The translations under genes were made by a program, and so were the position numbers. A stretch of 64,000 nt of DNA, from positions 165 to 64,164 of the forward strand of contig DAOLCW010000006.1 of NCBI GenBank assembly GCA_035327665.1. The letters run 5' to 3'. Source of the DNA: Kiritimatiellia bacterium. Its GTDB lineage: Bacteria; Verrucomicrobiota; Kiritimatiellia; CAIVKH01. A model generated the notes under the pieces. That model had not been told where the DNA came from, searched no databases, and saw only the letters and a program-made list of their open reading frames with translations. Positions 28,382 through 49,100 of the stretch are shown piece after piece (position 1 is the stretch's first letter; every line of letters begins with the position of its first letter).

Positions 28382-29107
28382 CTAAAACCCTACCAGCCCG
28401 CTCTCCCGCAGGCTGATAAAATCCACCGACCGGTCCTCCGTCCGCTGGCCCATGATGATATGATCCAGCACCTGAATATCCACAATCTTCCCCGCCTCGA
28501 TCAATTGCCGGGTGATCCGCAAATCCTCCGCCGACGGAGTCGGATCTCCCGACGGATGATTATGTACCATCACAATCGCCGCGCTGCACGACCGGATCGC
28601 CTCCTTGAACACATCCCGCGGATGAACCAGGCACGCATCCAGCGTCCCCTTCCCGATCTCCTGCGGCGGTCGCCGCAGCCGGTACTTCGTATCCAGCAGC
28701 AACACCCAGAACGACTCCGTATCCCGCCCCATCGTACGCTCCCGGATCACCTGGGCCGCCGCTTCCGGCGTCCGTACATCCGGCGCCGTCTGCACCGGGT
28801 TCCGGATCATCCTCCGCCCCAGCTCCAGGGCTGCCTTCACCACCTGGGCCCGCACCTTCCCCACCCCGCTCACCCCCGCCAGCTCGTCCACCGACACCCG
28901 CGACATCTCCTGCAGCGTCCCATACCGCAGCAGCAAATCCTCCGCCACATCCACCACGCTCTTCCCCCGGATCCCGCTCCGCAGCACAATCGACAGCAGC
29001 ACCCGGTCGTTCACCTGCTCCGCCCCCAGCTCGTCCATCAACTCCCGCGGCCGCTCCGCCATCGGCAAGTCCTGGATCCGGCGCGCGCTAATCTCATACG
29101 TGGCCAT
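28382..29107 (-). CDS. radC: RadC-like JAB-domain protein
   Basis: N-terminal HhH region (ELLAILLRSG-like: LLSIVLRSGIRGKSVVDVAEDLL) and JAB/MPN motif HNHPSGDPTPSAEDLRITRQL. ATG at 29107. Confidence 0.85.
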   Translation of the reverse strand: MATYEISARRIQDLPMAERPRELMDELGAEQVNDRVLLSIVLRSGIRGKSVVDVAEDLLLRYGTLQEMSRVSVDELAGVSGVGKVRAQVVKAALELGRRMIRNPVQTAPDVRTPEAAAQVIRERTMGRDTESFWVLLLDTKYRLRRPPQEIGKGTLDACLVHPRDVFKEAIRSCSAAIVMVHNHPSGDPTPSAEDLRITRQLIEAGKIVDIQVLDHIIMGQRTEDRSVDFISLRESGLVGF

Positions 29108-30428
29108 CGTTCTCCTCCATCTCCTCCTCCCATGCGTCCTCTGCCAAACCCTCCGTCACATAAGGACGGCACATCCCGATCATCCGGACGGGAATCGCCG
29201 CGTCGATCACCGCCGCCCCCTCGTCATCATACTCCAACTGAAAAATCGTCGCGCTCGCCTTCAGCGCCGCCAGCGTCTTGCCCTCTCCCGGCGGCACCTT
29301 CATCCCCACCCGCACATGCCGCTTCCGCAACGCATCCGCCAGCCCGTTCCGCAACTCCTCCAGCCCTTCCCCCGTCGCCGCCGAGATCGCCACCGCATCC
29401 GGAAACCGGAACCGCAAATGATGCGCCTGCTCCCGCGCCGCCTCAAGATCCATCTTGTTCAACACCGCCAGCACCGGCTTGTTCTCCGCCCCCAACTCCT
29501 TCAACACCTGCTCCACCGCATCTACTTGCTGATGAACCTGCGGATGCGACCCGTCGATCACATGCACCAGTAAATCCGCCTCCACCACCTCCTCCAGTGT
29601 CGCCCGGAACGAATCCACCAAATGATGCGGTAGTTTGCGAATAAACCCCACCGTATCCGTCAGCAACACCTGCTGGTGATTCGGCAACTTCATCTGACGC
29701 GTCGTCGGATCCAGCGTCGCAAACAACTTGTCATACGCCAGCACCCCCGCCTCGGTCAGCGCATTGATCAACGTCGACTTCCCCGCATTCGTGTACCCCA
29801 CCAGCGAGACCAAAGCCCACCCATGCCGACGCCGGCCCCGCCTCTGCTCATGCCGCCGCGCGCTCACCAACGCGAGGCGGCTCTTGTACCGTGACATCGT
29901 CTCCAGAATCCGACGCCGGTCCATCTCCAACTGCTTTTCCCCCGGACCGTGCATCCCGATCCCCCCTCGCTGCCGTTCCAGATGCGTCCACATCCGCCGC
30001 AAGCGCGGCAGCAAGTACTCCATCTGGGCCAGCTCGATCTGCATCTGACCCTCCCGCGTCCGCGCATGCTGCGCAAAAATATCAAGAATCACCTGCGTCC
30101 GGTCCACCACCTTCGTCTGAATCACCTTCTCCAGATTTCGCCCCTGAGCCGGACTCAGTTCATCATCGAACACCACCGTCGAAATCCGACCCGCCTTCAC
30201 CCGCTCCGCGATCTCCTCCGCCTTTCCCGTCCCGATCAACGTCCCCGGATGCGCCTTCACCACCCGGCACAACATCCGGTCCGCCACCTCCGCCCCCGCC
30301 GTCTCGCACAACGCGCAAAGCTCATCCAGCGAATTCCGGGCCTCCACTTCCTCCTCCCGGTCGCCGAACGTCCCCACCAGCAGAACCGTTTCGATCGATG
30401 TATCAGAGGTCGAGTACGTGACAGTCAT
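29094..30428 (-). CDS. hflX: GTPase HflX
   Basis: The N-terminal HflX domain (…VVFDDELSPAQGRNLEKVIQTKVVDRTQVILDIFAQHARTREGQMQIELAQ…) plus G-domain (GYTNAGKSTLINALT, DTVGFI, NKMD) aligns with E. coli HflX. Confidence 0.9.
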   Translation of the reverse strand: MTVTYSTSDTSIETVLLVGTFGDREEEVEARNSLDELCALCETAGAEVADRMLCRVVKAHPGTLIGTGKAEEIAERVKAGRISTVVFDDELSPAQGRNLEKVIQTKVVDRTQVILDIFAQHARTREGQMQIELAQMEYLLPRLRRMWTHLERQRGGIGMHGPGEKQLEMDRRRILETMSRYKSRLALVSARRHEQRRGRRRHGWALVSLVGYTNAGKSTLINALTEAGVLAYDKLFATLDPTTRQMKLPNHQQVLLTDTVGFIRKLPHHLVDSFRATLEEVVEADLLVHVIDGSHPQVHQQVDAVEQVLKELGAENKPVLAVLNKMDLEAAREQAHHLRFRFPDAVAISAATGEGLEELRNGLADALRKRHVRVGMKVPPGEGKTLAALKASATIFQLEYDDEGAAVIDAAIPVRMIGMCRPYVTEGLAEDAWEEEMEENDGHV

Positions 30429-31332
30429 GATGCAATAAACATTCTTCCAATTGTTTCACCGTGGTAAACGTCGCGTCAGCCTCCCCGGCCAAAATCCACT
30501 CCACCGCGACCTGATGACGAAACCACGTCCGTTGACGCTTGGCAAGCTGCCGTGTTCGCCTTACCACCTCCGCAAACGCCTCCGCCTCCGTCAACCGTCC
30601 CTCCAGCATCCCCAACGCTTCCCGGTATCCGATCGCCTGCCCCGCCGTCTCCGACCAGTGCGGATACCGCTCCCGCAACCCCCTCGCCTCCTCCACCAAC
30701 CCCTCCTCGAACATCCTTCGCGCCCGCGCCTCGATTCGCCTCCCCAAATCCTCCCGGCTCCGGTCCAAACCCGCCACCGGGGCCAACTCCTTCATCTCCC
30801 GCCACGACCGGTCCGGTTCCGTCCCCGCCCGCGCCTGCTCCATCGCCCGCATCAACCGGCGCGGATTCGACCCGTCCGCCAGCGATTCCAACACCCCCGG
30901 AGCCTGCTCCCGGCACAACGCCTGCAACCCCGCCACCCCTTTTTCCTCCACCACCCCCCGCAACATCGTCCGGTACTCCACATCCGGCGGAGCCTGCTCC
31001 TTCAGCCCCCGCAAGAGCCCGCTCACATACAACCCCGTTCCCCCCGCCACAATCGGAGGCGTCGCCCACAAATCCGCCGGAAGCGACCTCACATGATCAA
31101 GGTATCGGCTCAAACTAAACGACTCATCCGGCTCCGCCACATCCACCCCCTCATACCGGATCTCCTCCCGCTGCCGCCGCGTCGGCTTCGCCGTCCCCAC
31201 ATCCATCCCCCGGTAAACCAGCATCGAATCCGCCGAAAGAATCCACGTTCCCCACGCCCGCGCCAGCTCATGCACCACCTCGGTTTTCCCCGCCGCGGTC
31301 GGACCGACCACCATCCACCCCTTGCGAATCAT
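30403..31332 (-). CDS. miaA: tRNA dimethylallyltransferase
   Basis: MIRKGWMVVGPTAAGKTEVVHELA…ILSADSMLVYRGMDVGTAKPT… with the P-loop and the MiaA core. The start is the internal ATG at 31332. Confidence 0.85.
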   Translation of the reverse strand: MIRKGWMVVGPTAAGKTEVVHELARAWGTWILSADSMLVYRGMDVGTAKPTRRQREEIRYEGVDVAEPDESFSLSRYLDHVRSLPADLWATPPIVAGGTGLYVSGLLRGLKEQAPPDVEYRTMLRGVVEEKGVAGLQALCREQAPGVLESLADGSNPRRLMRAMEQARAGTEPDRSWREMKELAPVAGLDRSREDLGRRIEARARRMFEEGLVEEARGLRERYPHWSETAGQAIGYREALGMLEGRLTEAEAFAEVVRRTRQLAKRQRTWFRHQVAVEWILAGEADATFTTVKQLEECLLHHDCHVLDL

Positions 31333-31793
31333 GCCGCCTGCTGCGCCGGAGGCTGGGCCTTGAACGCCGTCACAAAATAAATCCCCACCCCCACGCAAAT
31401 CGCCGCATCCGCAATATTAAAACACGGCCAGTGCCACGTCCCCAGGTAGAAATCGAACATATCCGTCACCCACCCCTGCCGGATCCGGTCCAGCACATTC
31501 CCCAAAATCCCCCCCACCATCAATCCCAACGCAATCCGGTGCAACAGCGTGTCATTCAAAAACGACCGCCGGAAAATCACCATCAGCACCAGCATCACCA
31601 GCGAAATCACCGTCAACGCCGTGTTCTGCCCCCCGAACATCCCCCACGCCGCCCCCGTGTTACGCACATACGTCAGGTTAAAAAAACCCTCGATCACCGG
31701 GCGCGACTCCCCCAGCGCAAACTCCATACGCACCACATGCTTCGTCCACTGATCAAGCACCGTGAACACGATCGCAAGCAACAGCGGCAGCAT
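31329..31793 (-). CDS. lspA: lipoprotein signal peptidase II
   Basis: MLPLLLAIVFTVLDQWTKHVV…FFNLTYVRNTGAAWGMFGG…FNIADAAICVGV contains the conserved LspA Asp residues and motifs. ATG at 31793. Confidence 0.9.
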   Translation of the reverse strand: MLPLLLAIVFTVLDQWTKHVVRMEFALGESRPVIEGFFNLTYVRNTGAAWGMFGGQNTALTVISLVMLVLMVIFRRSFLNDTLLHRIALGLMVGGILGNVLDRIRQGWVTDMFDFYLGTWHWPCFNIADAAICVGVGIYFVTAFKAQPPAQQAA

Positions 31794-31810
31794 TCAACCC
31801 TCCCCGGCCA

Positions 31811-32689
31811 TTACCCCATCGACGAAAAATCCGCGCCCTGCAAACCCGTCCGACGGAACGGCTGATGGCGCGGCTTCCTCTTCTCGATCTCCGATTGCGC
31901 CGCCACGCTGCACCGGGCAAACGGCAGCGCCTTCAAACGCTCCCGCTCAATCTGTTCCCCACTGACCTCGCACACCCCATACGCCCCCTGCTCGATCCGC
32001 CGCAGCGCCTCGTCGATCTCGTACAACACATCGTATTCCGTGTTCAACAAACTCGCCGCGAACTCCCGGTCAAAATTGTCCGTACCCTGGTCCGCCATGT
32101 GCAAACTGTAACTCGACAAATCCCCCGAAGACTCCTTCGACGACTTGTTCAAATTATCATTCGCCAAAAACCCGATTTCATCAATCACCCGGTCCCGCAG
32201 CTCAAGCAGCAGCTTCTTGTAAACCTCAAGCTCCTTCGCCGTCAGCGGCTTCAAATGCGACGTCTTCTTCGCCAACTGCTTCACCGTAGGACGTCCCAGC
32301 AGCTCATCCACCGACTTTGGCAACTGCGCGCTCAACGGCGGCGGCGCCGACGAAATCGTCACCTTCCCCACCTTCACCCCTGCCGGAGGCTTCGGAGCCG
32401 CCACCTTTTTCGCCGGCTTCGCCGCCGGTTTGGCTTTCCCTTTTACCGGAGCCGCGGCCTTCTTCGCGGCAACCTTCTTGACCGGGGCTGCTTTCTTCGC
32501 CACCGCCTTCACCGCCTTCGCCTTCACCGCAGGAACTGGCTTCTTCGCTTTTGCCGCAGGCTTCTTCGCCGCAGGCTTTTTCGCAGGAGCCGACTTCTTG
32601 GCCGGAGCGGCTTTCTTCGTTGCCGTCGGCTTCCCTTTCGCCGCAGGCTTTTTCGCTGATTTCGTCGATTTCTTTGATTTCGAAGCCAT
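31811..32689 (-). CDS. DksA/TraR-family protein with ~130-aa N-terminal histone-H1-like Lys/Ala/Pro-rich tail
   Basis: Internal ATG at 32689 (MASKSKKSTKSAKKPAAKGKPTATKKAAPAKK…). The C-terminal part has DksA-like coiled-coil and zinc-finger region (…YEIDEALRRIEQGAYGVCEVSGEQIERERLKALPFARCSV) with only two Cys. Confidence 0.75.
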   Translation of the reverse strand: MASKSKKSTKSAKKPAAKGKPTATKKAAPAKKSAPAKKPAAKKPAAKAKKPVPAVKAKAVKAVAKKAAPVKKVAAKKAAAPVKGKAKPAAKPAKKVAAPKPPAGVKVGKVTISSAPPPLSAQLPKSVDELLGRPTVKQLAKKTSHLKPLTAKELEVYKKLLLELRDRVIDEIGFLANDNLNKSSKESSGDLSSYSLHMADQGTDNFDREFAASLLNTEYDVLYEIDEALRRIEQGAYGVCEVSGEQIERERLKALPFARCSVAAQSEIEKRKPRHQPFRRTGLQGADFSSMG

Positions 32690-32810
32690 AACGTTAACCG
32701 CTCCCTTGTGCAAAAATTCCTTGGGTCGTCCAAGGCGCCTTAAAAGGCAAGTGGCGGTGGGTACCATACCCCCCCTCCCCTGTCAATTCACTTTGGGCGG
32801 AATCCGCGTC

Positions 32811-32904
32811 CAACGTCCAAAGCTTGGAAACCCAAAACCCGCACGTTTCCAAGGTTTGGAAACCAAATCGACCCCATTTTCCAAGGTTTGGAAACCAACT
32901 TGCG
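32811..32904. promoter_or_regulatory. three direct copies of a near-palindromic ~18-bp motif (TCCAARGYTTGGAAACC), operator-like array
   Basis: The copies are GTCCAAAGCTTGGAAACCC (32811-32830), TTTCCAAGGTTTGGAAACCAA (32851-32872) and TTTTCCAAGGTTTGGAAACCAA (32883-32904). Each is an imperfect inverted repeat (TTCCAA..TTGGAA). The array sits 120-215 nt upstream of the dksA-like start. Confidence 0.45.
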
Positions 32905-32909
32905 GGGGG

Positions 32910-33128
32910 TCAGGCCATGACCGCGACCTGCTCGGCATCATGCCGGGCCGCGGGAATCCTTCGCCACGAAGCCTGCAAGTCCTCGATGTGCAGGGCAACG
33001 GCCTCCCGGATCAACTTCCGGACCTCGGCTTCCGTCCGCCCGGCCGCAACACAGCCGGGAAGATCGGGCACGTACGCCCCCCACGAGGAGGTTCCGCGCT
33101 CGATGATCACTGTATAGCTTCTCGTCAT
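32910..33128 (-). CDS. hicB: HicB-like (UPF0150) antitoxin-family protein, apparently orphan
   Basis: MTRSYTVIIERGTSSWGAYVPDLPGCVAAGRTEAEVRKLIREAVALHIEDL matches the HicB N-terminal fold signature (YxVIIE…PDLPGC…EA…LH). The start is the internal ATG at 33128. No HicA partner was recognised nearby. Confidence 0.6.
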   Translation of the reverse strand: MTRSYTVIIERGTSSWGAYVPDLPGCVAAGRTEAEVRKLIREAVALHIEDLQASWRRIPAARHDAEQVAVMA

Positions 33129-33249
33129 GTGTCCAATCCTGCCTGCCTGAGAACGCTTTTCAAGGGGCCCGGCGGAATGTCGATCCCTGATTGCCCGGAC
33201 ACCGTGACCGTACCCGGCGTCTACGAATGGCGATACTGGCGGTGACTGC

Positions 33250-33841
33250 CCTAAGGCAATCGAAATCGCGCTTGAGTTCAAAAAAGCATCGGGCGCCGGG
33301 ACGCAAGGCTTGCTGACCGACAAGCGAGCACGCCACATCATCGCCGCTATCTACTCCATCGCCAACAGCGACCACCAACAAGTATCTCAAGATTAGCCGG
33401 GTGATTTGGAATGACGCTTGCCGGGATTCAGTGGCGTCCGACAATCCTTTCGCCAAGGACAAAGTATTGGGCACGGAAAAGCACAGTTGCAAGGGATTCA
33501 CCCTTGACCAAGTGAGGGACATTTATGCGTTGGCATGGGATTCATGGCGCGGAATGATCCTTCTGGGTTTCTACATCGGCCAGCGTATTGGAGACCTTGC
33601 CCGGTTGACGTGGCAGAACGTTGACTTGGCGAAAGAGGAAATCCGGTTGACCACCGCAAAACCGGGCAGAGATATGATGATTCCAATGGCAGGTCCGCTT
33701 GTCGATTACTTCACCACCCTACCCGCGTCCGATGATCCTACCGCCCCGGTATTCCCCGACCTTGCCAAACTACGCAGGGGAACCCTGTCCGGTAAGTTTT
33801 CCGCACTGGTAGCCGATGCCGGTTTTGGCACTACAATATGA
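33250..33841 (+). pseudogene. degenerate tyrosine-recombinase (phage-type integrase) remnant
   Basis: The 33401..33841 frame encodes …MILLGFYIGQRIGDLARLTWQNVDLAKEEIRLTTAKPGRDMMIPM…, the integrase catalytic-domain start with Arg-I and the conserved Lys. It stops before the H-x-x-R/Tyr region. An upstream out-of-frame segment (…TDKRARHIIAAIYSIAN…) looks like the core-binding region interrupted by a stop. The stretch is lower in GC than the neighbourhood. Confidence 0.55.
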
Positions 33842-34181: not shown

Positions 34182-37100
34182 TCACTCCGGCAATGCCGTT
34201 TCGGCCTGCAGGCGCAGGAATTGCATTTGTTGCTGAACGGGAATAGACGCTTTCCACAATTCGCGTTGTTGTGCATCCGTTTGGCCCGTGAAGATGTTTT
34301 CAATCCCATGGACGGTCCAGTCGTCATTAACCGCTGTCGCCTTGGCAGGATCGAGGTAAACATTCACAGCGCGCGGATTCTTATAGTAGAGCATGATCAG
34401 CTTCATCGTGCCGTTTTCCGCCTCAATCGAACTGCTAAACAGATCAGCGGTGGCACAAGCCTCCATCGCATCGAGTCCGGCGGCAAATTTCATAAGGTTG
34501 GGTATTCCGTCTCCCATTGGAGAATCTTTAGCTCCGCGTAGATTTGGATCGGGGATGGATTCTGCCCACTCCGAAAAGGTCGTCGTTAGTTCGGCCGAGT
34601 CATATGAAAAACGAAGTCGCATGTGGGCCTTGGGCCCGGTAAGTGGCAGGCGCGCCTCCCAAACCTGATAGTCATCCGTCTCTTCAGCCTCCAGGTGATG
34701 CCGCTCAATGCCGGCTTGGCGCCAGAGCGGCGACACCAGTGATCCCGACCATTCCGGCAGGATAAACACATCAACTGCCTGCTTTGATTTCCTATAGCGT
34801 AGGATCAGATAATTGCCTTCCGATCGACTCACGAACAGGTCATCAGCTTTATGCGCTTCGGTCGGGGACAGGCCGACTGCATATTTGGCTAGGTTCGGAA
34901 TCTGATCGTCCATCGGACTGTCATAAGGCCCCCTTTGGGTTGAATCTACGATTTGCCTCGCCCACCTCTCGTAAGCCGTCAGATCGCTTTGATTTGTCAC
35001 CGTCAGGAAGATCGACTTGGTCGATTCACGGTTACCGGCCCTGTCGACACTGTAATAACTCAGTGAATAGATCCCGGGCGTATCATAGGTAATCACCCCC
35101 GCATAGTCGATCCATGTGTTCTGGCCATCATAACTGACCAAGATCTGATCGATCCCACTGGCATCATCCGTAGCGGTGAGATGGATCATGACGCCATCCA
35201 AGTAGGCCCCGCTGGACAATCGGGTTCCTTCAATCGCGTAGGCAGTGACCGGTGCGAGCCAGTCGGTGCGCGCCTCATAAATCACAGAATCGGAGGGCTC
35301 GCTGGCATTGCCCGCCGCATCGATGGCAACCGCGGTAAGCTCGTAATCCCCGTAAATAAGTTTGAGCTCGGAGGTGGTGAACAGGCCATTGGTACCGGTC
35401 ATTGCGGTTGCGATCAGAACCCCGTTGCTGTTGCTTATATAAACCTTCGTGCCGATTTCCGCCGCTCCGGTCAGGACGACGGTTCCGTTGCTTGATACAT
35501 GTAGCTGCAAGGTCGGCGGGGAAGGTGGGGTGAAATCAACCACGACGAAAAAGGTGAAGGGATGCTCGACATTCGCGCCGGTTACGGCATCTTCGCCCGT
35601 AACCGTAACATCCATCGAGTACGATCCATCGGCAGCGTTATCGGCCAAGTCAATGTTTACGCCAAGTCGTAGTCGCCCTCCGGCGGCGATTTGTTCCACC
35701 CCGTCCTCAAACGCGAAAACCAACAGTTCGGTAGCAAGCAAGTCGCCCGCAGCGGTGACCAAATCGCCCGCCATGATGTTCATATTGGTCACGCCATGCG
35801 TGCCGCCAACCTCAAGAATATCGGCTTGGATCAACACATTGCCTCGGCCAGTGAGCATGCCGTATACCGAATGACGCGTGTGCAGGCGGGCCTCAGCATC
35901 CTGCAGTTCTGAGGCGATCAGGGCAAACTGATCGGACGGATGCACGCGTACTCCGTTAACGTTTACCGTCCAGACCGATCCCGCTTTCACATTGCGAATC
36001 GTCACGAGCTGGCAGCGGCTGTCTGGGCCGGTAAACATAGCGTTGGGTATCTCGACCACCACGGCACCGGCATCGCTGTCATAGCCGGCATGGTGCCCGG
36101 CAGAATCATGCACATGTAAATCCATCACAGCGGCGGGATCATGCAGGAGCATAAAACGCAACGCACCGTCCTGGGTCGCGGTATACGTCACCGTGTGCAT
36201 CGTATCGGTGCCAAAATCCTGCTGTAAAAGGTGTCTCGGGATCGAGTCGGCCAATCCGTTCAGCCGCAATTCTGTTGCACTCTGAACCGTGGTGACCCAC
36301 GGCCCGTAGGAAGCCCGTGAAAGCGTGTCCTCTTCCCACAGTTCAAGCATGAGCTCAACATCGAATCCGAAGAGACTGTAGGTTTGCGCGTCCGGAAGCA
36401 GGATCCCGAAAGAAAGCGTTCCCGCATCGCCTGCGTCAAGTTTGATGTTTGGAAACTCCAGCGACAGCACCTTGCGTCCATCGGCGTAAAGATTGATGAG
36501 CGGGCGACCACTCCAGTCCAGCGTTCCATTGTTGGCCAGCGTGATTACTCCGGGGGTTAGCCTCATGCCGCGCTCATCCGGGAGAATCGCATTTGCGATT
36601 TCAAAGGAGAGGACTTCAACCGAGAGAACGGGGTCAATCGGCCGGTGTTCAATCAGGTACTGGATGTGTCCGGAGAAATCGCGCATGAAGGACCAAACCA
36701 CTCCAGCTTCCTGCTGATGGGCGGCGGTGTAGTCTTGGATGTCCCGGAAGAGGATTCTCAGGCCGATGCGCTCGGCCTCCTTCATGGAACTCATCGCCTG
36801 TTTATAGATTTCCATCGCCTCATTGACGGAGCTTTGGACCGAGTTGTTCACATGTCCGGCCATCTCTCCGAGGATGCCCCCACCCATGCCACCGACCATG
36901 CCGAGAGAGTCAAAAATGAATTTGGTCATGCTCAGTTCGGTGTATTCGGCGACCAATTCGGCATGGAACGCGATGTTATCCCACTGCATCTGCAAGTGCT
37001 TATAACTCCGGTAGAGCAGCGCCTTCACTTCACCGAGTTCATGCGCTTCCATAATCGGCGTGTTCCAATAGGGCGATGCGGTTCCCATGGCATACCAGAA

Positions 37101-40100
37101 TACCTGGGCGCGGTCTTCGGCATTTTCAAGCCCCGGAGTGGTCACCGTATTTGGCGTATACGGCGATCCACTGCGTTTCCCAGGATCATAGCTCACCAGG
37201 GTGGCGGTCATGCTGTGCAACTCTTGATAGAGAAGATCTATTGGGAAAATGGCGGAAACCTTGCTTTGCTGGAGGCTCCACAACTGAGATCGCAGGATCA
37301 TTCCCAGTGAGTCAATCGCGGCCAAATACATATCTAGCCCCGCGACTTTTTGTCCGGCGCCAAGGTGCCGCAACAACTGATAATCATTAAGGTCTTCCGG
37401 GAGGTTGTTGTGCATCGCGATGTATTCCATAAGACGACGGTAGTATTCGCGCGAATCAACAGAAGCATATTCGAGCTGTTTGCGAATTTCCTCCGTAGTT
37501 GGCGGCGTAGCATTGTTTAAGGTCGCCTGGGCGAGTCGTCCCAGGTTCTCCGTGAGATTCTCTTGGATCTGCTTCTGCGCGTGGAGGAGATCAACCATCG
37601 CGAGCAATTCCGAGTTCAATTTCACAACCGAATCGCCAACACTGGCAAAGCCAAGAAGATCGATCGATTTCAACGCGTCGTAATAACTCATGTCACCGCC
37701 ACCACTCGGATTGTTCATCTCCTCGCCATACTTGTTGGCGATTTCGCGACGTGCTTGCTCGGTGGCTTTTTCCAACAAAGAGAGCACTTTGTTCTCTTCA
37801 TCGTAGAATTCGGTTATGTCTTTGGCAAATGAGTGGATACCGAACACAAGGTCCTTGATCGAATAGATCACCGAAATCATCTGGTTGACGGTTTCCGTGA
37901 CGATTTGTAATTGGCCGAGATAGGCCATTTCATGAATGATGTCTTCGGTTTCCGAGTAGATTTGCGCAAGGTGCCAGAATTCGTTTTCAACCTTGTTTTC
38001 AAGGGCGCGGATCAAGTCGTCTACCAGATCCAGCAGTTCGGCAATGGTGTGTTCGGTGCGAAATTCGTGGGTAACCGGGGCCTGAATCCATTCACCCTGC
38101 TCCCCGAGCATCATCGGACTGAATGTCTTGATCTGGCTGAGCACCTCGGTGGCGTGCAGATCGCTGCTGAAGGTGAGATTCCAGGTAAACTCCGCAGTTT
38201 CGTTTGGAGCCAGCACGTCAACCGTTCGCGAGGAGCTTGTGGCGGTATCGCTGATCACGGCATCCCGCATCGCGGGAAGTTCTATCTTCACGTTGTACGC
38301 ATTTCCTTGCCCGCTGTTGGTGACGCGGGCGGTGAGCGTACCGCTGCGGTTTCCGGTTTGTTTAAACGAATAACTGATCTGAATGGAGGGTGACGGCTGC
38401 ACGACGAACCCAACGTTCTGCTCATAGGGAATCCGTGCGTTGCCAAAAAGGGTGACGCCTTCAATGCGCGCGGTGTAAGGCGTCCCGCCGGATGTTCCGT
38501 CGGCGAGTGAGGGGTCGTTCACCAGCACCTTCCAAGCCGACCGCCGCGACTGCATGGCCGGAATGGCCTCTGCAGTGATATCGGACTGCTGCTGGATGCG
38601 GAAACGATGAGTCACCTCCACGCCGTTCGCATCATAGATCCGCAGGATACAGCTTTCCACCTGCAACGCCTGATCCGGCATCTGGTTGCGCACGGCGCTT
38701 TCCAGGATGAAGGACTGGCCGGCGGCGAGTACCTTTTGGCTGATCGAAGCCATCAGTCCGGCCTCTTCGGTTCCGTCGATTGCCGCCGCATTTTCCCGAT
38801 CCAAGCCGAGCCAGAGCGGGAGCGTATCCATGCCGACCGGGCAGCGGCGACCCATCCAATCGGTATAAAAGACGTATTCGTACGGTACACCGTTCTGCCT
38901 GTCGAAGGTGTCGGCAAGGCGTATCCGGATGTGATAGTTTGCCTCGAAGCCTTGCAACGTGAAGATGTGGATGATCCCGTCGAGAACCAAGTCTTTTCCG
39001 GCCTGTGCCTGCAGGGCCAGCAATCCGTTCACATCCAGATCCCAATTGATCACGGTGGTGGCGCGCGGAGCCATCATGAGGTGCAGCAGGTTGCCCTCAA
39101 TAAATGTGTTGCGAATGTGGATGTAGGGGGCCAGCTCGCCCTTCAAGACCAGCGCGACACCGATCAGGTACTCATCGCTATCGTTCGAGAAGGAGAACTG
39201 TCCGCGCTGGTTGAAGCGATCAAACTCCGGCACTAGCTCATCCATTTCCGCTGGCACCCCTGCCCCACCGAGAATCAGGGCAAACTCGCGCCCTGGGCGG
39301 TAAAGCCTCAGCGGATTTACCGCATTGCCTTCCAGCACCAGATTCAGACGGGCTTCGCCATAGCTTTCAAGCTCCTGTGAAGCCGTCCTCTGCAGTGTGA
39401 TGCCGAACGGTTCAACCCTCACAACAATGTCGTGTGTTTCGGTTTCTCCAGTTACGAAGAAGCTTCCTTCCAAGCCACTGTAGGGATAGGCGCTGCCGAT
39501 CAGTACGTTGTAGGCGCAACGGCCTGGTGGCAGATTCATCATTACCGTTCCCTTCGCGACGGTGGTGGTTCCAGTGCGCTCCACACCTCCGGAGCGGAAC
39601 AGGATGCGCTGTCCAGGCAGCGGATTCTCAAATTGATCCACCAGGCGGCAAAGGACATAATATTCGTGGGCGGGCGATTTCAACCGCAGCTCCAGCGGCT
39701 GTTCGGCACGATAGCCTTCGCCGGATTCGGCCGTGAGCTTCATCGGATACGTCGCTCCGCTTACCGATGATCTGAAGGTTTCCAGTTCGAGGCGGGCCAC
39801 CGCCGCCTGCCCGGGGGCAATATTTCCAAGTTTGCTGGGCGTGATGACGATCCATGGGTAATTGGTGCATACCAGCTCAACGTTGGTCAGCACCTCATCG
39901 GTATGGTTCGTAACCACCACATCGATGAGCACCTTGCGTTCGGCGCCAACGGTCAAACTATCCGTGTACGCCTCTTTCGGAATCGTGTGATCCAACATCG
40001 TCCCGTTAAAGATCAGGGCATCCTGCAACTCGATACCCAGCGTCTTGCGCTCAGTCGCAGAGAAGACGAACCAGGCCGACGTGGTCAGGTTGCTTTCCCC

Positions 40101-43100
40101 GATGCGGCAGGCCATACGGGCTTCAACCAACAGGTGGCCGCAAACCTGCGTGCTTGTGACCGTTCCGCTGAAAATACGGGTCTCGCCATCGGGGATCAAT
40201 CCGGACGGAACAACGGCATCCAGATTCGCCACAACGCCATCCGCACCCATTCCTTCCGGATCGGGTATGAAAGCGACACTCTCGATCTGCACGTCGGCTC
40301 CCACCGCTTCAACGGTCAGGCTGAAGGGCGCCGCTTCGTTCAAATGCCCTGCGATCACCATTGGCGAAACCAGGCTCTCCAGTCCAAACACCATGGCGGT
40401 CTGACTGCTGGAGCGGAAGATCATCCCCAGAAGATCCGCGCCAACCGCCTGCGCGGAGATGCCCAGCTCACCGGCCAGCGCTTTCGTGGCCTGTAGCGTC
40501 ACCTCGAAATTCCCTGACGCATCGGTAATCGCCGGTAGGAAAATCGGCTCGTTGGTACTGACCGGTTCGACACGGACAAACACCGAGCGGGAGCTTTGCC
40601 CCTGTCCCCCAATCGTTGAAACACGACCGGTGATGGCGAAGGCTTCACCCAGAAGAACCCGTTCCGGCGCTGCGCATTCAACCACCAGTTCTTCGACCAG
40701 AACCAGCGACCGGGATGCGGAAACATACGTTTTCCCGTCACCACGCGCCACCGCCTGGACCCCATACTTGCCCGCGTCAATCCCGGCCGTGGGGAGCATT
40801 GCGCTCCACCCGTTATCAAAGGCCCCCGAGACAATCTGCATATCCGTCCCGTTGGCATCGCGCATCACCACGGAGACCGCAACATTCGCGGCCGGCACGC
40901 GCTGCATGGTTTTGGTATCAAGGACATCAATGACAACCTCAACCACATCGCCGGGCAGGCTCACGGTTTTGTCGAGGTCCATGACCACCTTCAGGCCCTG
41001 TTCAATGAGAACCGACGCTTCATAGCTGTTATTGGTTTCATCGCTTTCATCGATTTCATCCAGCGTATCGACTTCGACACGAAGGGTCACCGTATTGCCC
41101 GCCATGGTTTCGTCGGCCACCCAGACCGGATTCCACCAAAACGTTTGTCCCGGAAGCAGCAGCAGATTGAATCGTTCAACCGCAACCGGTTGTTCATCGG
41201 CAAAGAGCCTCGCGTTGAACGGTTTGCTGATCCTTCCGAGGCCTCGATTGGCGATATTGATGCCCAGGCGCGTCTCCACGCCCGCGCTCGCAGCCGGCGG
41301 AACAACAACCTGGCGGACCGTCAGATCGCCCTGGGTGATACTGAAGGTTTTTTTCACAAGCAGCACATTGTCGGAGACATCGGTTTCGTACCAGAGTCGG
41401 CCGGGATCGAGGGACACCTTGATGTCATGGGTCCCCGGCCACGGATCGTTCCATGTCAGCAATGCGGCGGTGAAGTGGCCGGCCGCGATCGGGGCGACCG
41501 CGCGGCGGGCGACCGTCTGCCCGTTGACGGTCATGACCACCTCGGAACCAAACGGCAGGCTCACGGCCGAGTGGTTGAAGATCGAGGCCGTCACCAGCAC
41601 CGGAACACCGGAAGCCAACTGGCCATTTTCCGGTTCGAACGTGAGTTGCTGCAACACCAGGTTGGGCAAGATGAGATTGAGATTGTTTTTGTTGACGGTG
41701 AGCGCCGCGCGATTGTTGTTTTCATTGCTTTCGCGAATATGGCTATGCGGCCAGTCGGCGATCACCTCGACAAGGTGCTCACCCGGCGTCGGCACCCAGG
41801 TAAACGAGACCGTTTCCGTGGCGTTGGTTTCCAGTTGATCCAGCGCGCTGTGGCCAAGGTATATTCCGTCCACATACGCACTGATGCGGAACGGTTTGTC
41901 GGCATTGATGTCGCCCCGGTTTCCGATGTCGGCCAAAACCTGAATCGGTCGACCCCAGTTGACCGGCTCGCCGGGAGCCACACTGAGGCGAACATTTTCA
42001 GCGACCAAATCGGCGAATACCACCTGATCTGCAAAGATCGCCAGGGTATCCACGTTGTTCCATTCGTTTGCTTCATTGACCCGGCTTCCCATATCGTCAA
42101 GGACCACCGTCAGGAACGGCTCAGACATGGAAGCGATATAATCAAAACTGATCGTCCCGGTCTGCCCGGCGGGCAGACCGCCTGTGACCAGCCGGGTATC
42201 AACCAGTTTTTCCCCCGCGTAGAGACTGACATAGAATTTGGCATCCGGCGGCAAGTCTTCGGCCGCGTTGCCGATCCCCACCGAGACGGTCAGCAACTGA
42301 CCATCCAGCACCTCCGCCTGGCCATGCCCGAAGGAGGCGACATAGAGATCGGGACGTGTCTCTTCAACCGTGACCAGCATCTTGTCCTCTTCCATCGCCC
42401 CGTCGTAGTCGGTGACCACCAGCAACACCTTATAGGTTCCCGAATCCGCAAATGTGTAGGACGGGACGGGACCGGCGATCCATTTTCCGCCGGTCTCCTT
42501 GCCGTCGACGTCCAGCCTGCGGTCGTCCATGTACCACTGGTAATTGACGACCACACCGTCCGGATCGTAACTGCGCGAACTGTTGAACCGAACCGGCTTG
42601 CCGAGTTTTACCGTCTGGTCCAAGCCCGCATCGGAAACCGGACGGGCGTTGATGCGGAATTGCCGTGAGGCATTGCCCTCGGTGCGCGTATCCAGGAAAC
42701 GTACTTCCAACGTATAAAGGCCATCCGTCGTTGTATCAAACACCAGTTCAACTGTCTGCGTGCGATAGGAACGCAATTCCTCGACTTGGGCCGTGGCCAC
42801 CAGGGTTTCCCCCCCCTGCGCGTCGATCAGATAAACGCCGATGTCCCCGGACTCGGGACTAACGCCGCGATTATACAACTCAATCCGCACCCCGCCTTCA
42901 TCGCCGGCGATAATCGGGAGCGGGCTGTTATACAGCGGCACCTTGTTTGCAATTGATCCAAGTCCATACTCGATCACACCGAAGCCATCATCGTCACGGT
43001 AATCCTCCCACCAGTGCGTTTGTGCGTATCTTCCCAGAGTCTTATCATCCGCATTGGCCATCAGGGTGTTAAACACGAAGGTCCCGATTTCCAGTTTGCG

Positions 43101-46100
43101 GATTTCGAGTGCGGACTGGTAGTCAATCACATACGTAACCGGCATGCCTACGGGCTGTCCGTTGACGATTTGACCGATACGGTCAACGATGTAGAGGATT
43201 TCGCCATCGCGCCAGAAATTGTTTCCGGAGAGTTGGTGAATAGCGCCGGATCCATCGAGGTGATGCCGCTGAATGCCGCGGATATTGATCGAGACCAGCG
43301 GATCGTTGAGCACCATGCAGACAAACCCGTTGGTGGCGGGAATGGTGAAGGTCATCTGCGGCGCTTCGATCGTCGGCGCCTGCGTCACCTGGAGTTCGTC
43401 CGGGACGATAATGTCCTGTCGCAGTCCGGTATGGAGATTGATCAGATAATCTGGAATTCCATTGTCGTCCCGGTCAATCAGGCTGAACGAATTGTTCGGA
43501 TCAATCTCGTCGGCAAAGAGGAAATCGCCCAGGATAATCTCGGTGTGCACCGCGGTAATGAGCGGATTGAGCTGCACGCCCTTGAACGGCAGATGCACCA
43601 GCTCCGCGGTGAATTCGGTTACTGTGGCATCGAGATTGCATCGCGTAATCCAGTATCCGCGAGCCCATCCGAGTGCGGCAACATCGCCGAACTCAACCGC
43701 CCACTCCTTGGTTTCAACATTTCCCGCGCCAAAGCTGCTGCCGACGATTTCCATTTGGAGCGGGACCCCGCTTTCATTCTCGGTAATCTTGGGCTGGCCG
43801 GATTTGATTCGGAAGTTTTTGGCTTCACCGAAGCCGTGGTTTTCGACAAAGACGCCCAACCGGAACGGGGTGTTGGCCAGAATCTTCTCCGGCAGGTAGT
43901 AGAACAGCTCCAGCAAGGGCTGCGGATGAACCGTGATCTCTTCGCTGTGGGTGTTGAACTCCCTGAACTGCCCCGCCTGCGAATAGGTGGCTGCCGCTTC
44001 AACATAATATTTCTTTCCGGCCGGGTCTTCGCCGCCGAGACCTACGCCCGGCACCAGGATCCAGCTCGCGGTAAACTCGGTTCCCCCGGCCAGGGTCTGT
44101 GACCCGTCCGCCGCACTCAGCCCGCCGCTCAAACTGGGCTGTACAATATAGAATGCGCTGGTCACGTCGCGGTTCGCGGCATCGAACACGCGCGGAGCCA
44201 CACTGAAGCCGACGAGGTCGTCGCTGAGCCCGTTGCGGAAAGTCAGCACCGCCTCGAAGCCTTCGCGTTCAAGCGTGGCTTCCTGTGGAATCTGCAGTTT
44301 CACCGCCACAGAAACCCTGTCGGAATCCTCATCCTGAAGTTTAGGCAGTCCATCAAATTCCTGCTCCCCATCTCCAAAGTCTGGCATTTTCACCTTTTCA
44401 TCCTGGAAGCCGGGAACGCGAATCGTCGCGGTACGATCCGCGGCCGGATTGTAGATCGGTACCTGATTGGTGACCCCGAAATCGGCAAATTCACCGGTCT
44501 TTTGATCAAGTGCCCGATACGTTCCGGTCAGCTTGAACCTGCTGCCGCCTTTCAAGTCTTCATACGTGCCGGGGGCAATATAATACGCAAGCTGGACTGA
44601 TTCGCCGGCCTCGATGATGCCAATATCACCGCCCCCCGCCAGTGAAAGGCTGTTGATCAATTTGGGGTCACCGATCACCTCCACGCGTACATTGCGCAAC
44701 GCAAGATCGCCCTGATTTACAAAGATCAGGCGGTCGCTGTAGCCCTGCTCAACCGTCTGGGCAATCGTTGCCCACGGCGGCAGGGAAACGATCGACGGCT
44801 TGTTGAGGTTGTCGATGCGCAGGGAGATGTCCAGAATGATCTCATACCGGTCTTCGATGGTGATTGGCGTAACCGACCACGTATAGGTGATCGGCGTAGC
44901 GGTAAGTGTTTCGCTGATCAGAACCGGCAGGCTGGACGGCATGATCTCCACCTCGCCCTTCACCGATTCATGGCCGCTGCTGTTGATCGAATAGGTGTAG
45001 GCGCCGGTCGGGATGTCTTCAAACATGACCCGCCCCGCCGCATCGGTGCGGTCAATAAACACCTCATAGCGTTGACCGGCGGTGGAACCGTCCGGATTGA
45101 TGACCGGCGTGGTTTCCTTGCTGATTAGACGAACCTCGGCACGTTCGATCAGGCGGCCGGCATCGTTGCCAACGGTAAAACTGACACCGCCCCGCGTTGC
45201 GCTGGTCAACTCGATCTCGATGCCCATTCGGAAGGAGATGTTGTTTTCGTCGGACAGCGTGATGTAGTCGCGGTAGAGTCCCAACCCGGTGGCCGCATAA
45301 GGCTGGACAACCACTTCGAGTTCGAGGGCGGCCCCCGGCTCAAGATTCCGGATCCCCGAATAGTTCACGGTGACCCACGGCAGGTTCGGCGCTCCACTGA
45401 CCGTAAAGTTCTTCAGCGTGCCCAGCCCTCGGTTGGTGGCGGTAACCCGCCGGAACAGGGTATCGCCGGGGTTCATTCCGAGCTTGAGCATGCTTTCGCT
45501 GAAGCGGATCGACGGCCCGCTGTCGAGCAGCGTCACGTTCAGGTCATACGTCCGCTCGATACCCTCGTTACAACTGAACGACAGCCGGAATTGCCCCGCA
45601 TCATCGGCCACTTCCTCTGCTTCAAGCACGACGGTTAGCTGAACCGCCTGACCCGCGCTCAGCACCGAGGGCACGCTTGAAACAAGACGCGCCTCGATCC
45701 CGTTCGCGGCCACCACCTCGCTCAAGTCCACCCGCACATTGGTCAGCGCGCGGATCGAACTGTTTCTCAGGGTGACGGTTTTCGAGTGGGTATAGTTTTT
45801 CGGCATCGTGATATTCGCGCCGGGCGAGTCAAAGCCTGCGTTGAGAATCTCGAAATTGCAGGTGCCGGAGGCCGCCACCACGGAACTGATCAGATAGCCG
45901 GTAACCGTGTACATGCCGGACTGACCGCGCAGGGTGCGGTGCAGATAGGTGAATTCGCCGGTCGGACTTGTTTTCACTTTCGCGGTGGTGACATCGCTGG
46001 CCATATTCGCCAATGCGGCCAGCGCCGGGTTGGCCATGTCTCCAAAGCCGTCCTCCCCCTCAAAGATGGCGAGCAGAAGGGTCTCATCGGCAATGGGAAG

Positions 46101-49100
46101 GCCTTGCAGATCCAGAACGCGTCCGCTTATGACAAGTCGTTCTCCGGCCAGGACCCGCGGGGAACTGGGTTCCATGTGAATCGTGCAGTCTTGAATCACC
46201 ATAAACGGCAGCGTCTGCGAGCGCGAAAGCGCACCGTCGTTATAGGTGATACGAACACTGTAGTTGCCCGTTTCATTAAACGACGCCAGCGGCAATTCGA
46301 GATTGAACCGCGACGCAAGCAGGTCGTAGAGCATGGGCACGTCATCATACAAGGTCTCGGGATCCGGGTAATAAGGCAGCTCGCCAGGCTGGATCACCAC
46401 CCCCGGTGTATAAATCAACGAAAGGGTCATCGTTTGTCCGGCGCTGGTATCCAGCCAGGCCTTCGGCGCCGAGGCATAGCTCGCCCGGGCGCTGACACGG
46501 CAGGTTTCCGAAGAGATATAAATGGGAATCCCGAACACCTCGTCAGCTTCACGATCCAGTTTTGCATCCACAATCAGGCCGTCTTGAATGGAAAGTTGAA
46601 TCGCCGCCGTCGCAATATTGTTTGCCTCATTCTCTTCGGGAATCACATTTTCCGGGTCCACCTGGACCGCGAGGGTATGCGACACCGTCGGGTCGACATC
46701 CACGTTCTTCCACATCAAGCCGGTTTGCACCGTTTCATAACCCCGGATCGAACCGATTTCCAGCTTGCTGACCTGCCTGCCGTTGACCAGCAGGATCACC
46801 GAGCTGCGAGCATAACTGGAGACTAGCGAAAGGTTCGAAAGATTAAAGGTCACGATCAACGAATCCCCATATTTTACCGGTCCGCCGTGTTGGGTAAACC
46901 AGGAGACATTGCCGACGGTCAGATCGCTATACAAGATCCGGATCTCTTTCGTGGTGTGGCGTTGTTCATTGTTGGAATAGTCGGATTCTGCAATCGTCTG
47001 ATTCTCGTTGACGACCACACGGATTTCATGAACCCCCTCCGTAGCCAACACCTGGAAGGCGACGGTTTTCGACGCGCCGGGAGCCAGATGGCGTATCTCG
47101 CGGGTACCGACCCGGCGTCCGTTCACATAGAAATCAACCGGGGCGGTTTGAAGCAGCCCGACCGCAGAAAGGTTTTTCACGGTCGCGCTCATATCGATCC
47201 AGCTTCCGTGCGCCATTTCCTCCTCATCGGGTTGAACCGTCAGTTCTAGCTGCAAATCCGGGTGTTCGACGGTCAGGTCGCCCAGCTCCAGGGTATAGCT
47301 GTTGTTCGTCTCATCGCTCTCCACAATCAGCGAAACCGGGCCATCCACCATGGCGGTCAGGGTATTGGTGCCATTCACCGGCATGACATCAAACGTAGTG
47401 GTCAGCGTTCCCGAGGCGGCCAGATCCGGCAGCGGTTTGCGGGAGATCATCTTGCCATTCTGATACAGCGCAACAAAGATTTTTTCGGCATCCGCCGTTC
47501 CGGCATTTTGCACGGTAAGGGTCGCTTTCAGCGCCTCTTGACTGGTGATGACCGCCGGCACGGGGCAAGTCATCTCCGCAATCAGCAGATCGGGAAAATG
47601 AATCTGCTGGAATGTCATGTGAACCTGGTTGTCGTTGTTCACTTCCGAGAGTTCGTTCACCGCGTTGATCAGATCGTCGGCCACCACTTTTACCGTATGC
47701 AGCCCCTTGAGCGCCGTCCACCGGAAGGTCACGTCCACCGCGTCGCCGGCCGCGATCCGGTCATGAACAATCACATAGCCATGATAAACGCCGCTGATGT
47801 AATAGGTGGCAAAGAACGCATTCCGGGTCGGGCCGTTCCCTTGGTTGCGGATTGTGGCGATAATGGTAATTTCGTCCCCCTCTTCCGGCTCCCCGGGCAT
47901 CCAGGTGATCTTTTCAACGATCAAATCGGCACGGGTATCGGCCACGGTCACCAGGATCGAATCCGTCGAAGAAACACCCCGGTCATCCGTAACCGTCAAC
48001 GTCACGGTATGGACCCCGACCGCTTCATAGCGGTGAACCACATTCATGCCGCGCTTGGTCTTGCCGTCGCCTAAGGTCCAGAGATATTCCATGATGCGGC
48101 CATCCGCATCGCTGCTGCCCGAACCGTCAAAAGCCAGTTCCTCATACCAGTCCACTGAGCGGTCGCTACCGGCCATGGCCACCGGGGGATGGTTTACCAG
48201 CACTTCACGCGAGAGCTCGTTGTCACCGGGAGTCGGATCCAACGCCGGCGCAACGACCACCGCCACCGCACGGATGGTCTGCGACCCGCCGTTTTGGGGA
48301 ATCCACGGACATCTCACATCCGCCGAGGCCAGTCCATTCAACCAGAGATGCTGGATGCCGACTTGCTCTTCGGCCCCACCATTCGAAACATAAAAGCGAA
48401 CCGTAACCTGCGCACGCGCCGGTCCCCGGTTGAGCACCCGGGCAACGATATGGCCCAGCCGGCCCTGCGCCGGCGTACGTGGATCGAATACGAGCGACTG
48501 GATGGTCAGGTCGGCTCGCGTGGTTGTTGCGAGTTCACTGATGTCGGACAACGGTGATTCATTGCCGGCCAGATCCACCGCGGAAACGGCGAATTGATAG
48601 GCTTGATCGCTCTGCAGCGACTCAACGGTGAAGGACTCGGAGGAGGAGGAACCGGCCGGTTGCCATCCGCTTTCACCGGACACCCGCCGGTATATCCGGT
48701 AGTGCGCCAAGTCGCTCTCGCCATTGGCCGACCAGCTCAACTGGATGGAACTGCCGGTCTGCGGGTCGGTTGCGCTCAATCCCTGCGGTGCGGCGGGTGC
48801 CTCGGTGTCGCGGACGAGGATAAAGGTGGTTTCCAGGCTGTTATTCGAACGGTCTTCCGCCCGCGCCCGGATTTCAATCTCTCCATCCGGCAGCCCGTCG
48901 GGATTCCACGTTTGCTGGATCCTCCAGTGCCTCTGTTCGGCCTGCCAAAGGGCCTGCGGCGTGCCGCTGCATTCGAGCCAGTTCGCATTGCCAACCAGGC
49001 GATACCAGAAGGCTCCGGTGGCAATCGCGTCATTATCCTTGGCCAGCAAGGCCAGGTTGATGGCTCCGCTATGGCGCGACCACGCCTGCGGCATCACGCC

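Follow-up and report, generated by a model that had tools for sequence, protein, structure and literature searches.

The 64,000-nucleotide stretch analysed here (the window; positions 165 to 64,164 of contig DAOLCW010000006.1, assembly GCA_035327665.1, from a Kiritimatiellia bacterium) carries on its minus strand a gene for a DksA-like protein with a long lysine-rich N-terminal tail, followed by lspA, miaA and hflX. An earlier interpretation made from the letters alone (the sequence-only reading) had described the product as a tail of lysine, alanine and proline (K/A/P) repeats fused upstream of a DksA/TraR-type coiled-coil, and this description was borne out by the composition, by the match to PF01258 and by the predicted fold. 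It is almost certain, in our judgement, that the gene is real, that its product is a member of the DksA/TraR family and that it includes a conserved, translated basic tail. A protein entry with the identical 292 residues (P0001) is annotated by NCBI as 'MAG TPA: TraR/DksA C4-type zinc finger protein [Kiritimatiellia bacterium]', MAG standing for metagenome-assembled genome. The coordinates of all features are collected in Table 1.

The C-terminal part of the protein (residues ~148-270) is, by sequence and structure prediction, a DksA/TraR-family domain. PF01258, which the sequence-only reading had named as the check for this part, matches residues 235-270 over the full profile (1-36) with 34.0 bits, above the gathering cutoff of 24.9. 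The DksA/TraR fold, consisting of a long antiparallel hairpin, a small globular finger and a C-terminal helix, is present in the AlphaFold2 (AF2) model, which also gives a beta hairpin and a helix (249-270) in the core. When the modelled core was compared with the PDB using Foldseek, ranks 1-8 were all DksA, DksA2 or DksA bound to RNA polymerase (RNAP), with template modelling (TM) scores of 0.40-0.76; the top matches include 4ijj, 1tjl and 6ptg as well as the RNAP-bound DksA of 5vsw and 7khi. By phmmer, the best PDB match is 6ptg, the DksA of Chlamydia trachomatis (E=1e-22), and the DksA2 of Pseudomonas aeruginosa (4ijj) and 2kq9 come next. The best NCBIfam match is the yteA subfamily TIGR02890, with 92 bits and thus below its cutoff of 134.4. 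The motif at the tip of the hairpin could be located in 116 homologs and is unchanged in 114 of them, and its two aspartates, D204 and D207, are invariant in both alignments made (A1 and A2). Alignment with E. coli DksA using hhalign (94.9% probability) placed D204-N-F-D207-R on D71-P-V-D74-R.

The globular region contains exactly two cysteines, C240 and C260, and departs from the canonical CxxC-x17-CxxC finger, reading C240-E-V-S243 ... (C260)S261-V-A. C240 is invariant across the homologs, whereas the cysteine position in the second half varies (RYC, RYS, RCS or RFS). According to the published classification (PMC9126822), the finger is, as judged from its residues, of the degenerate C1/C2 zinc-independent type and not a dependable metal site. 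The C2 zinc finger proposed by the sequence-only reading therefore stands as regards its two cysteines and falls as a usable zinc finger. The last DksA helix is followed by a basic C-terminal extension, which is clade-specific and has proline and arginine positions that are invariant across the Kiritimatiellia homologs; the alignment to 6ptg stops before it.

The N-terminal tail is of very different composition. Residues 1-135 consist of 28% lysine, 27% alanine and 15% proline with one aspartate, one glutamate and one arginine, and the strictly acid-free K/A/P section covers residues 1-~112, so that the tail is nearer to 110-125 residues than to the ~130 first estimated. Its net charge is +37 and its pI is 11.6 (residues 1-112), compared to 6.4 for the core. 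KKPAAK occurs three times and AKK eight times. No other K/A/P-rich, acid-poor stretch of 40 amino acids is found across the six frames of the window, and hence the tail is not a product of base composition. Such windows are likewise confined to the DksA-like gene in L001-L012, the first twelve of the 80 GTDB loci compared here (L001-L080, one genome per species), to which two Verrucomicrobiota contigs (L081 and L082) were added. The GC content at third codon positions (GC3) is raised in the tail (0.70) as in the core (0.79). In the full-length AF2 model residues 1-126 are without secondary structure, with a predicted local distance difference test score (pLDDT) of ~45-50, and the linker that follows is partly conserved among the nearest homologs. 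A recent tandem expansion was ruled out as the origin of the tail, since Tandem Repeats Finder (TRF) gave just three weak short arrays and no clean tandem repeat in its DNA. Lysine modification by polyphosphate at a 'PASK'-type motif was given low weight as a role for the tail. Serines and acidic residues are needed for that motif as well, and the acidic ones are absent from the tail.

The start of the gene was placed at the ATG at 32689, which is preceded by a Shine-Dalgarno-like motif and after which the next in-frame ATG comes only at residue 198. A GC-rich hairpin lies ~30 nt before this start, just 5' of the ribosome-binding site and between it and a further in-frame ATG at 32767. It may terminate the gene upstream or serve as an element of the 5' leader, and it counts mildly against the 318-aa open reading frame (ORF) that begins at 32767. 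This longer ORF was rejected, as it would add 26 non-conserved residues (a leader containing arginine, leucine and cysteine) and enclose the hairpin and the ribosome-binding site, whereas the homologs begin with MA(A/S)KK. A promoter and terminator scan of positions 28900-33500 gave counts no higher than those in shuffled sequence, and no promoter was assignable there.

Conservation of the fusion was surveyed in two sets of homologs, a close set comprising the 120 nearest 90%-identity clusters and a distant set comprising the best 150 of a HMMER search over 1.84 billion representatives. A basic tail was counted when at least 30 residues, acid-poor and with at least 15% lysine, preceded the core. 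In the close set, 112 of 120 proteins have at least 30 residues before the core, and the survey called for by the sequence-only reading found the fusion conserved in 108 of 120, in which this extension is lysine-rich and acid-poor (median 92 aa). In the distant set, an N-terminal extension of at least 30 aa is present in 138 of 150 and reaches up to 383 aa; 105 of these 138 pass the filter. The N-termini of the homologs begin with the conserved MA(A/S)KK. Neither of the two failings that the sequence-only reading had foreseen for itself, a start downstream of an unconserved tail and a C-terminus foreign to DksA/TraR, was found: fusion and start are conserved, and the C-terminus matches the family in profile and fold. 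Between near-identical homologs the changes are almost confined to the tail, as indels of 2-11 residues and substitutions, and the composition is retained. The tail changes fast in sequence and length while keeping its composition, as would be expected if it were a disordered polycationic region with a function rather than an untranslated leader. In one 90%-identity cluster the annotations conflict, the JGI protein being tailed (P0132, 248 aa) and the NCBI protein starting after the tail (P0275, 140 aa). Some pipelines thus place the start 3' of the tail, and surveys of annotated proteins undercount it.

The tail has a restricted distribution. Among the GTDB loci, L001-L012 have a lysine-rich or basic N-terminal extension, which is clear in ten of them; the tail of L011 is interrupted by the contig end, and that of L003 is visible only in its annotated product (P0061). 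These twelve are labelled Kiritimatiellia or Kiritimatiellae, Verrucomicrobia or Verrucomicrobiota, Lentisphaerae GWF2_57_35, Spartobacteria, or simply 'bacterium'. The remaining loci (L013-L080), from Planctomycetia, Omnitrophota, Gemmatimonadota, Bacteroidota, Calditrichota, KSB1, Latescibacter and others, are without comparable tails. Short basic extensions occur in just two of them: L022 has 19 aa, and the Gemmatimonadaceae locus L069, with a weakly basic stretch of 37 aa, is the sole one to pass the filter. In a neighbour-joining (NJ) tree of 236 core sequences, built without support values from a short domain, 138 of the 141 tail-bearing proteins fall in one clade, together with the tail-less C. 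trachomatis protein, and L013-L080 all lie outside it. On this sequence evidence the tail is best regarded as a lineage trait of a subgroup of the Planctomycetes-Verrucomicrobia-Chlamydiae (PVC) bacteria, made up of Kiritimatiellota, Opitutaceae and other Verrucomicrobiota, and MAGs labelled Lentisphaerae. The named carriers are Kiritimatiellia MAGs, Opitutaceae MAGs and Rariglobus hedericola (a 351-aa protein), and the longest-tailed representatives are Verrucomicrobiota (Opitutaceae MAGs and R. hedericola).

Two groups of homologs differ from the Kiritimatiellia protein in further respects. The Opitutaceae and Verrucomicrobiota forms (L081 277-1893; L082 5001-6230; P0190, P0219 and P0326) have tails of 200-380 aa and a conserved middle module between tail and core with the motifs ...KP(I/V)AFSLDE(V/I)REIAK... 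and ...ASLADILGFNP.... At the C-terminus they are acidic (GDGDD) and do not have the basic extension. The Gemmatimonadota homologs (in loci from L025 to L080) are tail-less and have a full CxxC...CxxC finger, e.g. CHQCGEE...FCISCK (L041 from 3965), and several of these loci encode ordinary C4 proteins of ~140 aa. Since the C4 finger is kept there, the lspA-linked DksA-like lineage is taken, from the sequences, to cover both C4 and C1/C2 forms.

Table 1. Features of the tailed DksA-like gene, its product and its surroundings (positions in the window; residues are those of the 292-aa protein)
Feature	Position	Strand	Evidence and remarks
Complete coding sequence of the tailed DksA-like protein	31811..32689	-	292 aa + stop (stop codon 31811-31813); ORF list, translation
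N-terminal K/A/P-rich tail, residues 1-112	32354..32689	-	Zero acidic residues; predicted disordered
Linker, residues 113-147 (ISSAPPPLSAQLPKSVDELLGRPTVKQLAKKTSHL)	32249..32353	-	Two short predicted helices, H127-130 and H136-143 (AF2)
Coiled-coil hairpin, residues 148-234	31988..32248	-	Helix 151-186, tip loop 187-203, helix 204-234 (AF2)
Tip motif HMADQGTDNFDREF, residues 197-210	32060..32101	-	D204/D207 pair with E. coli DksA D71/D74
Globular 'zinc-finger' region, residues 235-270, degenerate	31880..31987	-	PF01258; C240-x2-S243 ... C260/S261-x2-A
C-terminal basic extension (RKPRHQPFRRTGLQGADFSSMG)	31814..31879	-	Clade consensus GKPRFRPFRRTSIQ; conserved columns P273, P277, R279, Q284
Shine-Dalgarno-like AAGGGAG	32701..32707	-	11 nt 5' of ATG 32689; read from sequence
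GC-rich hairpin CCTTGG-ACGAC-CCAAGG then AATTTTT	32719..32735	-	Terminator-like scan; weak evidence
lspA (signal peptidase II)	31329..31793	-	17 nt 3' of the DksA-like gene; PF01252 E=1e-39; TIGR00077 128 bits, above cutoff
miaA (tRNA isopentenyltransferase)	30403..31332	-	PF01715 E=9e-56; likely ATG 31332 overlaps lspA stop
hflX GTPase	29094..30428	-	PF13167, PF16360, PF01926; 26-nt overlap with miaA end
HicB-like antitoxin ORF	32910..33341	-	Directly upstream of the DksA-like gene
Truncated phage-integrase-family ORF	33401..33841	+	Upstream of the DksA-like gene

The DksA-like gene appears to be the first cistron of an operon in which it is followed by lspA, miaA and, as the last gene, hflX. 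The miaA ORF as listed runs from a TTG at 31398 to 30403, and the ATG was inferred from the translation (MIRKGWMVVGPTAAGKT). hflX follows miaA directly, with no hfq between them (positions 29094..31398), the E. coli order being miaA-hfq-hflX. The order dksA-like, lspA, miaA, hflX was found in all twelve of L001-L012, and lspA lies 3' of the dksA-like gene in 80 of 80 GTDB loci and on the two further Verrucomicrobiota contigs, an adjacency that extends to Gemmatimonadota, Bacteroidota, Omnitrophota and Calditrichota. A gene for a RluD-like pseudouridine synthase lies further 3' of lspA in the two inspected Gemmatimonadota loci L041 and L053. In Chlamydia the gene order is nrdR-dksA-lspA (PMC9126822), and in Streptomyces lsp is SCO2074, which adjoins ddbA, SCO2075 (PMC4941574). 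The adjacency noted by the sequence-only reading as reminiscent of PVC bacteria and Chlamydia is thus present and is shared with Chlamydia; its occurrence in all loci and in many phyla makes it an ancient and widespread arrangement rather than a PVC signature.

Upstream, an IleS-like gene is found in 63 of the 82 loci, and no IleS-like sequence is present anywhere in the window. The HicB-like and integrase ORFs occupy the usual position of ileS, which suggests that a mobile-element insertion or local rearrangement broke the ileS-dksA-lspA arrangement here. Beyond them lies an ORF of 8,693 codons (34182..60263, minus strand) that takes up 40% of the window. Its ends (first and last 2,500 residues) match GLUG, LamG/ConA-like, Peptidase_M26_N, BACON, CARDB and bacterial Ig domains, and these matches suggest a giant adhesin-like protein that is secreted or exposed at the surface.

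The closest published counterpart in architecture is DdbA (SCO2075) of Streptomyces coelicolor, the 'DksA-like DNA-binding protein' of Aldridge et al. 2013 (PMC3643593). In electrophoretic mobility shift assays its N-terminal domain and the full-length protein shifted DNA, whereas the C-terminal domain did not; the N-terminal domain condensed DNA in vitro, and in a ddbA mutant nucleoid condensation and supercoiling responses were altered (PMC3643593). Overexpression of full-length DdbA suppressed a relA phenotype, which the tail alone did not, and the authors considered the tail specific to streptomycetes (PMC3643593). DdbA, compared here by its published description, shares with the Kiritimatiellia protein a lysine-rich N-terminal tail joined to a DksA-like half. 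Both genes also adjoin the gene for the lipoprotein signal peptidase, a likeness that is not specific as it is common to tail-less homologs. The two proteins differ in their finger (four cysteines in DdbA, C1/C2 here), in their repeats ((S/T)(A/T)AKK in DdbA, KKPAAK/AKKAAP with 15% proline here) and in their phyla (Actinomycetota and PVC, respectively). The fusion probably arose independently of DdbA, by convergence: the two have different finger types, no comparable tails were seen in the homologs from other phyla, and in similarity to the Kiritimatiellia protein tail-less homologs of many phyla rank between it and DdbA. The C. trachomatis protein that is also called DdbA (CTL0322, PMC8343073) was set aside as an unrelated namesake, its paper mentioning neither DksA nor Streptomyces.

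Judged by sequence, C. trachomatis DksA (CT407; 6ptg) has the closest solved structure, and the NJ tree places it in the clade of the tailed proteins. It has a zinc-independent finger in which only the first cysteine is conserved, and no metal was seen in it (PMC9126822). It also shares the H(M/Q)ADQGTD.FDR tip motif and has lspA immediately 3'. It differs in being without the lysine-rich tail and without the basic C-terminal extension (the crystallised chain has 132 residues), and the H1-like K/A/P proteins of Chlamydia, Hc1 and Hc2, are encoded by separate genes. Upstream of the DksA gene lies nrdR in Chlamydia, a HicB-like ORF here and ileS in relatives. With E. coli DksA and P. aeruginosa DksA2 (1tjl, 5vsw, 4ijj) the protein shares the predicted hairpin, globular domain and C-terminal helix, with E. 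coli DksA the aligned DxxD tip, and with DksA2 a zinc-free CxxS/T...CxxA finger; in the hhalign alignment its helix 1 and tip loop exceed those of E. coli DksA by 19 residues, and both DksA and DksA2 are without the 110-aa tail and without the C-terminal extension. The tail itself resembles the C-terminal domain of histone H1, Hc1/Hc2, AlgP and HupS/HupB in being K/A/P-rich, acid-free and disordered, with a charge of about +37 in our protein, and it comes without a globular winged-helix (GH1) domain. 'H1-like' as applied to it is a description of composition only and is not evidence of homology. Anaeromyxobacter CarD is another factor interacting with RNAP that carries an H1-like domain.

On balance we consider it rather probable, by analogy with these systems, that the protein is a DNA-tethered factor of the RNAP secondary channel made of two modules. 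The zinc-independent C-terminal module (residues ~148-270) would insert its DxxD tip (D204, D207) into the secondary channel as DksA does, and the disordered polycationic N-terminal module (residues 1-~112) would bind DNA non-specifically as the DdbA tail does. The tail would keep or concentrate the factor on the nucleoid, and modulation of RNAP could thereby be coupled to local compaction or occupancy of the DNA.

Several observations weigh against this mechanism. The core was modelled with a mean pLDDT of 60, below 50 in the tip loop, although its helices are well predicted. The scores for the DksA equivalogs TIGR02420, NF033459 and PRK10778 (44.5, 55.6 and 18.9) are far below the respective cutoffs (115.5, 105 and 289). 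R91 and K98 of E. coli DksA, which we take to be the residues that contact guanosine tetraphosphate (ppGpp) at site 2 with RNAP, pair with T217 and E224 in the hhalign alignment, with gaps nearby; as paired there they are not conserved, which would make synergy of the DksA-like protein with ppGpp doubtful. Moreover, C. trachomatis DksA failed to complement an E. coli dksA mutant (PMC9126822), so that canonical DksA activity is not guaranteed here. As for the tail, charge, composition and analogy are what points to DNA binding. No Pfam family matches the tail alone, even at E<=10, and this includes linker-histone and Hc1/Hc2 profiles; it also contains zero [ST]P.K (S/TPKK) motifs. The resemblance to H1 and Hc1 suggested by the sequence-only reading consequently holds for composition and fails for motif and profile.

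The alternative that survives best, although we hold it to be unlikely, is that the tail binds another polyanion, such as polyphosphate granules, RNA or ribosomes, or anionic membrane lipids, and localises or sequesters the DksA-like domain without tethering it to the nucleoid. Such a role would suit a low-complexity tail of pure charge with no sequence-specific DNA-binding fold, and association with polyphosphate granules is reported for the H1-like AlgP of Pseudomonas (PMC9239181). The operon partners could be read in the same direction, as lspA encodes an enzyme of the membrane, miaA one that modifies tRNA and hflX a GTPase associated with ribosomes, but the lspA neighbourhood is ancient and is shared by tail-less homologs, and is therefore uninformative about the tail. 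The tail of DdbA, the one tested protein of the same architecture, binds DNA and condenses it (PMC3643593), and RNAP, the presumed partner of the C-terminal module, works on DNA.

Less probable still is a repurposing of the DksA/TraR fold away from the secondary channel, as an operon-specific or a redox or stress factor tied to ileS/lspA, in a protein that would be mainly nucleoid-associated. The failed complementation by the nearest solved relative (PMC9126822), the degenerate finger, the scores below the cutoff of every DksA equivalog model and the clade-specific basic extension without a DksA counterpart all speak for it. However, C1 and C2 DksA proteins of other bacteria are functional and complement (PMC9126822), and the DxxD tip and the motif surrounding it are essentially invariant over hundreds of sequences, which fits purifying selection on a tip that inserts into the channel. 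Finally, that the tail is an untranslated 5' leader and the true start a GTG or TTG near residue ~130-150 is very improbable: in-frame GTG or TTG codons do exist at residues 127, 136, 139 and 146 and one cluster bears both short and long annotations (P0275 and P0132), but in well over 200 homologs the frame is open over 30-383 codons, is far from random in composition, encodes hardly any acidic residues and begins with the conserved Met-Ala-(Ala/Ser)-Lys-Lys, a Shine-Dalgarno-like motif stands before ATG 32689 but before none of the internal candidates, GC3 is raised as in the core, and NCBI annotates 292 aa.

The two-module mechanism thus remains the reading we prefer. A nucleoid-binding tail on a DksA-like factor, as conceived by the sequence-only reading, is made plausible by the analogy with DdbA and has in DdbA a precedent (PMC3643593) that deprives it of novelty; the architecture is already published, the protein is already in the databases, and no new principle is involved. 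A full-text literature search turned up no paper on tailed DksA-like proteins of this kind in Verrucomicrobia or elsewhere in the PVC group, and what appears to be undescribed so far is the breadth of the trait, which in Kiritimatiellota and Verrucomicrobiota extends over hundreds of sequence clusters. A bolder scenario, which we put forward tentatively as possible rather than likely, is a single gain of the tail at the root of the Verrucomicrobiota-Kiritimatiellota-Lentisphaerota branch, by which the factor would have become abundant on the nucleoid, a 'linker histone riding on RNA polymerase' that couples secondary-channel regulation to compaction, with DdbA as a convergent case. A common origin of the tail and the free-standing chlamydial Hc1/Hc2 in the PVC ancestor is a possibility. 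Rariglobus hedericola would offer a tractable entry point, as this tailed carrier appears to be an isolate, judging from a record without MAG label, a UniRef entry and a 2.4-Mb contig. If the mechanism is true, a whole branch of the PVC bacteria, much of it known only from MAGs, would possess a DksA-type factor that a histone-like tail holds on the DNA, and the coupling of nucleoid and RNAP known in the style of DdbA would be generalised, having evolved at least twice at the ancient ileS-dksA-lspA locus.

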